From a virus (taxonomy: Duplodnaviria; Caudoviricetes), in IMG/VR virus record IMGVR_UViG_3300027278_000003: a stretch of DNA of 64,000 bases. One strand, written 5' to 3'. Position 1 is the stretch's first letter. Every line of letters begins with the position of its first letter. Positions 26,842-27,043 of this stretch are shown piece by piece. Below the pieces are notes generated by a model. The model had not been told where the DNA came from, ran no database searches, and saw only the letters and a program-made list of their open reading frames with translations. Both the position numbers and the translations under genes were made by a program.

Positions 26842-26976
26842 ATGAAACGAAAGATTAAGGTGCCTAAAGAACGCAATCCTTTCGTAGCACACGTTGCTAC
26901 TAAACGTTCTGGTGCGCACGGTAAAACAAACAAGGCTTTGCGTAGAGCAGAGAAAATTAAGTTAATGGACCGTTAG
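26842..26976 (+). CDS. 44-aa basic protein MKRKIKVPKERNPFVAHVATKRSGAHGKTNKALRRAEKIKLMDR
   Basis: AAGGAAG RBS; last 10 nt including TAG overlap tRNA-Lys. Confidence 0.7.
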   Translation: MKRKIKVPKERNPFVAHVATKRSGAHGKTNKALRRAEKIKLMDR

Positions 26977-27043
26977 CTCAGTTGGTTAGAGCATTCGACT
27001 TTTAATCGAAATGTCCTGAGTTCGAATCCCACCCGGTTCACCA
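26967..27043 (+). tRNA. tRNA-Lys(TTT) with mismatched T stem
   Basis: TTCGA-CTTTTAA-TCGAA arm and ACCA; T stem CTGAG/CCCAC has two mismatches. Confidence 0.75.

Follow-up and report, generated by a model that had tools for sequence, protein, structure and literature searches.

A short reading frame in a marine phage runs into a tRNA gene before it reaches its stop codon, and this raises the question of whether the overlap is a by-product of tight gene packing or a device that deprives the message of its stop. The locus lies in a stretch of DNA of 64,000 nucleotides (IMG/VR record IMGVR_UViG_3300027278_000003; Caudoviricetes), here called the window, which is a piece of a large marine phage with 15 tRNA genes and no close cultured relative. 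The encoded protein, P0001, is also present on a 369-kb contig, and, judging by a search of sequencing runs, the phage turns up frequently in marine metagenomes. The window additionally carries host-like metabolic genes (24613-25740, 29591-30346, 43756-46608 and 8714-11017), a set that comprises an ornithine/DAP decarboxylase, a fatty-acid desaturase, a bifunctional PutA (proline dehydrogenase plus aldehyde dehydrogenase), a class I ribonucleotide reductase and radical SAM proteins. The peptide gene itself sits within a same-strand tRNA array, where the following features are found:

26750..26824, + strand: tRNA-Met(CAU), directly 5' of the peptide gene (ARAGORN; Rfam, 65.7 bits)
26830..26835, + strand: AGGAAG, a Shine-Dalgarno-like sequence 6 nt 5' of the ATG (read from the sequence)
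26842..26976, + strand: ORF encoding P0001, 44 codons plus TAG (ORF reading, homologs, natural variant)
26842..26955, + strand: conserved core, residues 1-38 (alignments A2 and A3)
26956..26966, + strand: variable, stop-free linker, I-K-L plus the AT of the Met codon (sequence and relatives)
26966..26967, + strand: predicted RNase P site at the mature 5' end of tRNA-Lys (from the usual action of RNase P)
26967..27043, + strand: tRNA-Lys(UUU) with encoded CCA (ARAGORN, ttt; Rfam RF00005; alignment A4)
26974..26976, + strand: TAG stop of the ORF, formed by U8, A9 and G10 of the tRNA (sequence, ORF reading)
27061..27063, + strand: the following in-frame stop, again TAG, just 3' of the tRNA (sequence)

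The first-pass annotation had described a basic ORF of 44 residues with a good ribosome-binding site and a stop inside a tRNA-Lys that begins at 26967, and the sequence, ARAGORN and Rfam agree on each of these points. The ORF ends with ATG GAC CGT TAG (26965-26976), and both programs place the tRNA start at 26967, so that G1 of tRNA-Lys is the third base of the Met-42 codon. The annotation had further held that 5' maturation leaves a message ending in ...AAG TTA AT with no stop. This matches the position of the tRNA start, and a predicted cut between 26966 and 26967 would indeed give the upstream message that very end.

We find that the ORF is a genuine and conserved coding gene. A word-indexed search recovers 48 close homologs of 44-76 residues at 58-100% identity to P0001, and a profile built from the trimmed 38-residue core (A2) extends to 886 clusters at E<=1e-3 among 1.8 billion cluster representatives. 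Conservation among the close homologs covers residues 1-38, and in the profile matches the core is almost always N-terminal; in both sets the C-terminal tails are unconserved and look like translated tRNA 5' ends. The core carries the motif R-N-x-x-V ... [SA]-G-x-H-x-K-T-x-K-A-x-R-[RK] (alignments A2 and A3), within which R11, N12, G24, H26, K28, K31 and R34, and also T29 and A32, are invariant across the alignment of phage and bacterial cores. A natural variant from a metatranscriptome contig differs at seven positions in the ORF, six of them synonymous and the seventh the conservative replacement V18I; four metatranscriptome runs hold contigs that span the ORF and the tRNA, a count that rests on contigs only and in which DNA carry-over is possible. 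The homologs, the breadth of the profile matches, the N-terminal position of the core and the six-to-one ratio of synonymous to conservative changes together identify the ORF as a real gene.

The gene belongs to a large, uncatalogued family of strongly basic peptides of about 38-50 residues that occurs in Gammaproteobacteria and, among phages, in tRNA arrays. No model in Pfam, NCBIfam or PHROGs matches the peptide or the bacterial members scanned, and the family proteins are annotated as "hypothetical" in their sources. Profile searches of all PDB chains (A1 and A3) return only chance matches, to designed repeat proteins and a transcarboxylase, from a library that does contain ArfA chains. Similarly, the ESM Atlas gives only unnamed clusters and a weak lead to DUF7230, and the sole nucleotide match among cultured phages is a tRNA-Pro. 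We found in the literature neither a phage rescue peptide nor an account of this peptide family. A protein search does reveal unannotated copies in two phages, Acidovorax phage ACP17 and Variovorax phage V45v66. The one in ACP17 (L057:2486-2638; KY979132.2, about 151742-151894) has its own stop and a tRNA-free neighbourhood; it has no ATG, GTG or TTG near the conserved N-terminus and lies directly 3' of the stop of the upstream gene. We further note that the 90%-identity cluster of P0176 (46 residues) includes P0336 (529 residues) and P0335 (573 residues), from Logan assemblies; both may be predicted genes that extend across an entire tRNA array.

The composition of P0001 (nine Lys, six Arg, two Glu and one Asp, for a net charge of about +12) brings to mind a leader peptide rich in Lys, one that would respond to charged tRNA-Lys by adjusting how the downstream tRNA-Lys is expressed or processed. 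Nine Lys codons among 44, placed immediately 5' of a tRNA-Lys, would suit such a leader. The invariant residues, however, also include Arg, Asn, Gly, His, Thr and Ala, bacterial homologs keep the same core with no tRNA nearby, and attenuator-type alternative structures are not evident, so that a leader function is barely credible.

If the overlap with tRNA-Lys were fortuitous, it should not recur. We therefore turn to the phage relatives. Their 57 loci, namely 54 from IMG/VR, two on contigs retrieved by identity and the one in the window, group into 26 clusters when the cores are clustered at 80% identity. In 16 of these clusters a tRNA-Lys(UUU) starts before the ORF has ended, 9-38 nt past the KxxKAxR[RK] motif. 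The overlaps use all three frames, and the first stop is encountered 7-185 nt beyond the tRNA-Lys start, within the tRNA or past it. The junction has been rebuilt in at least eight registers among the phage clusters, never with a stop gained, and the partner is tRNA-Lys(UUU) in every one of the 16 overlapping clusters. Since 16 of 26 clusters share the layout, in different frames, the overlap of ORF and tRNA-Lys goes beyond chance.

No tRNA overlap is detectable in ten of the 26 phage clusters. In two loci (L054 and L014) the stop falls in the loop of a hairpin, one has a 53-nt hairpin within the ORF (L051), two retain remnants of tRNA-Lys (L017 and L019), and about six clusters have plain stops. 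In the loci with remnants, an apparently decayed tRNA-Lys follows the core (L017:3100-3200 and L019:3145-3170) and the ORF reads through it; the acceptor-arm sequence is kept and the interior is deleted or diverged.

The tRNA-Lys of the window scores 53.5 bits against Rfam RF00005 at 26967-27040 (gathering score 29), and its T stem contains two mismatches, C49.C65 and A52.C62. This damage had been taken at first reading as a sign that the tRNA may act in part as a processing signal. The mismatches are plainly there; the role drawn from them is not supported. In alignment A4 the T stems of the relatives are intact and the two-mismatch stem is unique to the window copy, and in a near-identical relative (a contig from an RNA library) a C>T change at 27029 re-forms A52-U62, one of the two mismatched pairs. 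All 17 aligned tRNA-Lys genes have a CTTTTAA anticodon loop and an encoded CCA. The tRNA-Lys(UUU) that abuts the peptide gene at L016:3123-3210 is 88 nt long; compared with 16 relatives, its variable region is enlarged by a 10-nt insertion.

A separate observation concerns the stop codons themselves. The peptide ORF meets TAG both at 26974 and at 27061, and the phage carries an amber suppressor, a tRNA with anticodon CTA at 27745-27819 of the window (labelled Pyl by ARAGORN; Rfam, 40.8 bits). Amber read-through may thus be part of the biology of this phage and could further blur the termination of the ORF.

Bacterial members of the family offer an independent view of the junction. A scan of one genome per species yields nine gammaproteobacterial loci, including one from Marinomonas spartinae (gene at L064:2980-3222) and two closed MAG chromosomes, and a profile search finds the family as a single-copy gene in 33 of 400 evenly sampled Gammaproteobacteria genomes. 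In several of these bacterial loci (L071, L072, L073, L077, L080, L083, L097, L066 and L062), near-perfect hairpins of 20-28 bp and -30 to -48 kcal/mol begin at [KR][EQ]W codons right after the core and end before or around the stop. Others (L064, L065, L074, L076, L085, L087, L088 and L098) have an intrinsic terminator with its T tract inside the ORF, and in L058 the first base of a tRNA-Glu lies within the TGA. Counting only hairpins that start at least 15 nt inside an ORF, and taking the neighbouring ORFs of the same loci as controls, hairpins of -30 kcal/mol or below occur in 16 of 34 family ORFs versus two of 48 neighbours (Fisher p=4e-6). Stem changes between L062 and L071 are compensatory. 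Run on arfA genes as positive controls, the scan picks up the hairpin already described within the E. coli ORF, and in four further Pfam-positive arfA genes it likewise detects a hairpin or a terminator.

These bacterial layouts bear directly on the simplest explanation of the phage overlap, in which a compact genome merely borrows a stop from its tRNA and translation ends normally at the TAG of the primary transcript, with no control by trans-translation. Such compaction has some appeal: U8-A9-G10 spells TAG, so frames that enter a tRNA soon stop, phage genomes are compact, and a few relatives have normal stops. It does not explain why bacterial relatives outside tRNA arrays have in-ORF hairpins or terminators at the equivalent position, why the tails are unconserved translations of tRNA, or why a junction rebuilt so many times never gained a stop. 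We regard compaction as a highly improbable account.

Most homologs, then, meet tRNA-Lys, a hairpin or a terminator before the stop, and an ArfA-like layout is on this ground a conserved trait of the family. The first-pass annotation had proposed such non-stop logic from the window only and had pointed to homologs as the place to look. The DNA-level layout in phages and bacteria upholds the proposal as a family trait, with the qualification that a minority of homologs (L001, L010, L030, L036, L050, L052 and Acidovorax phage ACP17) have ordinary stops. Comparative support for the non-stop regulatory reading is thus strong, as far as gene layout can speak to regulation.

We propose, with a probability of roughly 0.6 and largely by analogy, that the family comprises back-up ribosome-rescue factors made from non-stop mRNA. 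On this proposal no stop would precede the RNA element at which the transcript is terminated or cleaved. That element would be the 5' end of tRNA-Lys(UUU) in the window phage and most phage relatives; in bacteria and some phages it would be a long RNase III-type hairpin or an intrinsic terminator. RNase P would free the tRNA and leave a stop-less message, on which ribosomes would stall at the 3' end. As long as tmRNA-SmpB capacity is to spare, the peptide would be tagged and destroyed; with tmRNA saturated, it would build up and, as the analogy suggests, bind ribosomes and recruit a release factor. The phage would thereby carry its own back-up rescue factor next to its tRNAs. The control may be leaky, in that uncleaved transcripts would still allow termination at the TAG inside the tRNA.

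A peptide made in this way could also bind ribosomes with the opposite outcome, slowing or inhibiting translation in a hibernation-like state or during host take-over and accumulating only when trans-translation is overwhelmed. Size, charge and the non-stop layout fit inhibition equally well, and the present data do not separate it from rescue. Yet the bacterial genes are single-copy and chromosomal with no recognisable antidote partner, some phages keep the peptide gene beside a tmRNA gene, and rescue is the function of ArfA and BrfA, the sole proteins known to arise from programmed non-stop messages (PMC8012679, PMC6881298). An inhibitory role therefore appears distinctly improbable.

Further clues to function come from the genes around the peptide. 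At four of 19 bacterial loci, a gene for the RNA ligase RtcB (Pfam PF01139, E=4e-129) lies directly upstream on the same strand as the peptide gene, at gaps of 13-339 nt:

L062:1358-2560: RtcB gene 5' of the peptide gene (Pfam PF01139)
L071:1659-2861, - strand: RtcB gene 5' of the peptide gene (Pfam PF01139)
L074:242-1450: RtcB gene 5' of the peptide gene (Pfam PF01139)
L065:231-1562: RtcB gene 5' of the peptide gene (Pfam PF01139)

These loci represent at least three lineages, and it is very unlikely that the adjacency arose by chance. Neither the window nor the phage flanks yielded an RtcB gene. Among the phages, L016/L021 and L050 have a tmRNA gene no more than 3 kb from the peptide gene:

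L050:4207-4555: phage tmRNA gene
L016 and L021:578-965: phage tmRNA gene

The tmRNAs near the peptide genes comprise one of the beta type by Rfam (131.7 bits) and a permuted one called by ARAGORN, with the tag ANNNYAPEMAKLAA. The peptide gene of L050 has an ordinary stop, and those of L016 and L021 run into tRNA-Lys. Another structured RNA occurs in L030, where a full-length GOLLD RNA with an embedded tRNA (L030:2271-2726; Rfam RF02032, 223 bits) lies in the phage tRNA array about 300 nt 5' of the family member.

The RtcB and tmRNA neighbours and the constant pairing with tRNA-Lys(UUU) point, speculatively, to a function of the peptide in dealing with RNA damage. PrrC-type anticodon nucleases cleave tRNA-Lys, and among host anticodon nucleases tRNA-Lys(UUU) is a classic target. 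One could accordingly imagine a peptide that is made from a non-stop message and serves RNA repair or tRNA protection instead, as a partner of RtcB or, in phages, as a shield or maturation helper for tRNA-Lys(UUU). The position of RtcB directly 5' and on the same strand in L062, L071, L074 and L065 would suit the former, and the pairing of all 16 overlapping phage clusters with Lys(UUU) the latter. We nevertheless consider this unlikely: RtcB is present at just four of 19 bacterial loci and was not found in the window or phage flanks, L058 uses tRNA-Glu and most bacterial loci use no tRNA, the linkage to tRNA-Lys could reflect inheritance of one module, and neither repair nor protection gives a reason for tying expression to tmRNA capacity.

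The back-up rescue reading and the RNA-damage clues can also be combined. In this fullest form, the peptides would constitute a new and widespread rescue family that depends on release factors and is wired to RNA damage through RtcB in bacteria and tRNA-Lys(UUU) in phages. The phage peptide and its replacement tRNA would make up a counter-defence cassette against host immunity that cleaves tRNA, with tRNA processing by RNase P setting the tmRNA-dependent expression of the peptide. We put this forward tentatively, as a picture that is possible but has the odds against it.

The family is the third known to us, and an unrelated-looking one, to have a non-stop layout, which it reaches by three routes: tRNA excision, hairpin and terminator. 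If rescue is indeed the function, the non-stop regulatory trick would have evolved repeatedly, and the layout would provide a signature for finding rescue factors independently of sequence. The phage members would then be a first in two respects, as a rescue peptide housed in tRNA arrays and as a non-stop message programmed by RNase P processing of a tRNA, and the links to RtcB and tRNA-Lys suggest a connection to ribotoxin or anticodon-nuclease defence. By the 400-genome sampling, the family is commoner among Gammaproteobacteria than Pfam-defined ArfA, which is found in five of 400 sampled species versus the family's 33 of 400; this difference could explain how bacteria without ArfA tolerate the loss of trans-translation, and such tolerance bears on antibiotics that target tmRNA. 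None of the 33 genomes carrying the family has a Pfam ArfA, an absence that is uninformative because the expected overlap is merely 0.4 genomes.

The closest functional parallels are found among known rescue factors. To our knowledge, ArfA and BrfA are the only proteins that are purposely made from stop-less messages. Both are small, basic back-up rescue factors that are produced from non-stop mRNA and held low by tmRNA tagging (PMC8012679, PMC6881298, PMC10107115). ArfA (YhdL, PF03889), which is RF2-dependent and found in E. coli and other Proteobacteria, resembles the family in being small and very basic with a segment rich in Lys, Arg and Gly. The layout at the DNA level is also alike, with an RNase III hairpin or a terminator preceding the stop in the ORF, and the hairpin starts at a Trp codon both in arfA and in bacterial family members.

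The resemblance does not extend to sequence, as the first-pass annotation had already remarked. Pfam PF03889 matches none of 67 members (at E<=10 for P0001, 49 close homologs and eight bacterial proteins, and at E<=1 for ten more bacterial proteins) and none of five viral contigs. Likewise, hhalign gives no significant match to enterobacterial ArfA, and its best alignment to a diverse ArfA set covers ten columns (PLHNHPMLRK versus ALLHDKLFRQ) at P=0.089. ArfA has a KGKGSY tail in five of five genomes, whereas the family has [SAG]-G-x-H-x-K-T-x-K-A-x-R-[RK]; the mature form of the family is shorter, and the family is also phage-borne. Moreover, the truncating element in phages differs from that of arfA in being a tRNA 5' end with a predicted RNase P cut, and we know of no account of a tRNA 5' end in this role for arfA. 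A gammaproteobacterial Pfam-ArfA gene at L102:140-335 (36.9 bits) has its TGA 6 nt before a tRNA-His. ArfA proper can thus abut a tRNA, and exonuclease trimming after an RNase P cut could remove the L102 stop.

BrfA (YqkK) of Bacillus subtilis is likewise RF2-dependent and is made from a non-stop mRNA by means of a terminator within its ORF (PMC6881298). In-ORF terminators are shared by family members L064, L074, L076, L085, L087 and L098, but BrfA comes from a different phylum than the bacteria that carry the family. ArfT of Francisella tularensis, a protein of 40 residues with a KKGGSTNKK motif, works with RF1 or RF2; arfT is reported to have an ordinary stop, with neither a terminator nor an RNase III site ahead of it (PMC6299226). 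ArfT is gammaproteobacterial, and its motif resembles the KKGG[VI]HEKTNKAK of bacterial family members, a comparison confined to the motif and to primer-derived termini. The ArfT motif, however, stands at the extreme C-terminus, its N-terminus (MAYNEKIV, from published primers) differs from the MKRK..RNP of the family, and its reported ordinary stop contrasts with the stop-less layout described here.

Two further systems share parts of the arrangement. In the tRNA punctuation of animal mitochondria, excision of an abutting tRNA likewise makes the 3' end of an mRNA that has no intact stop upstream; there, polyadenylation completes the stop, whereas here the message would stay stop-less. The RtcB2-PrfH module pairs an RtcB ligase with a factor for stalled ribosomes, PrfH having been named a rescue factor for damaged ribosomes (PMC11741408), and four bacterial peptide genes similarly lie directly 3' of RtcB. 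The partner in the family is a peptide of about 45 residues and not a release-factor homolog, and the pairing is found at a minority of loci. Taken together, these comparisons characterize the family as a new one, analogous to ArfA, BrfA and ArfT, with a distant kinship to them possible and with the likeness to ArfT judged from motif and termini only.
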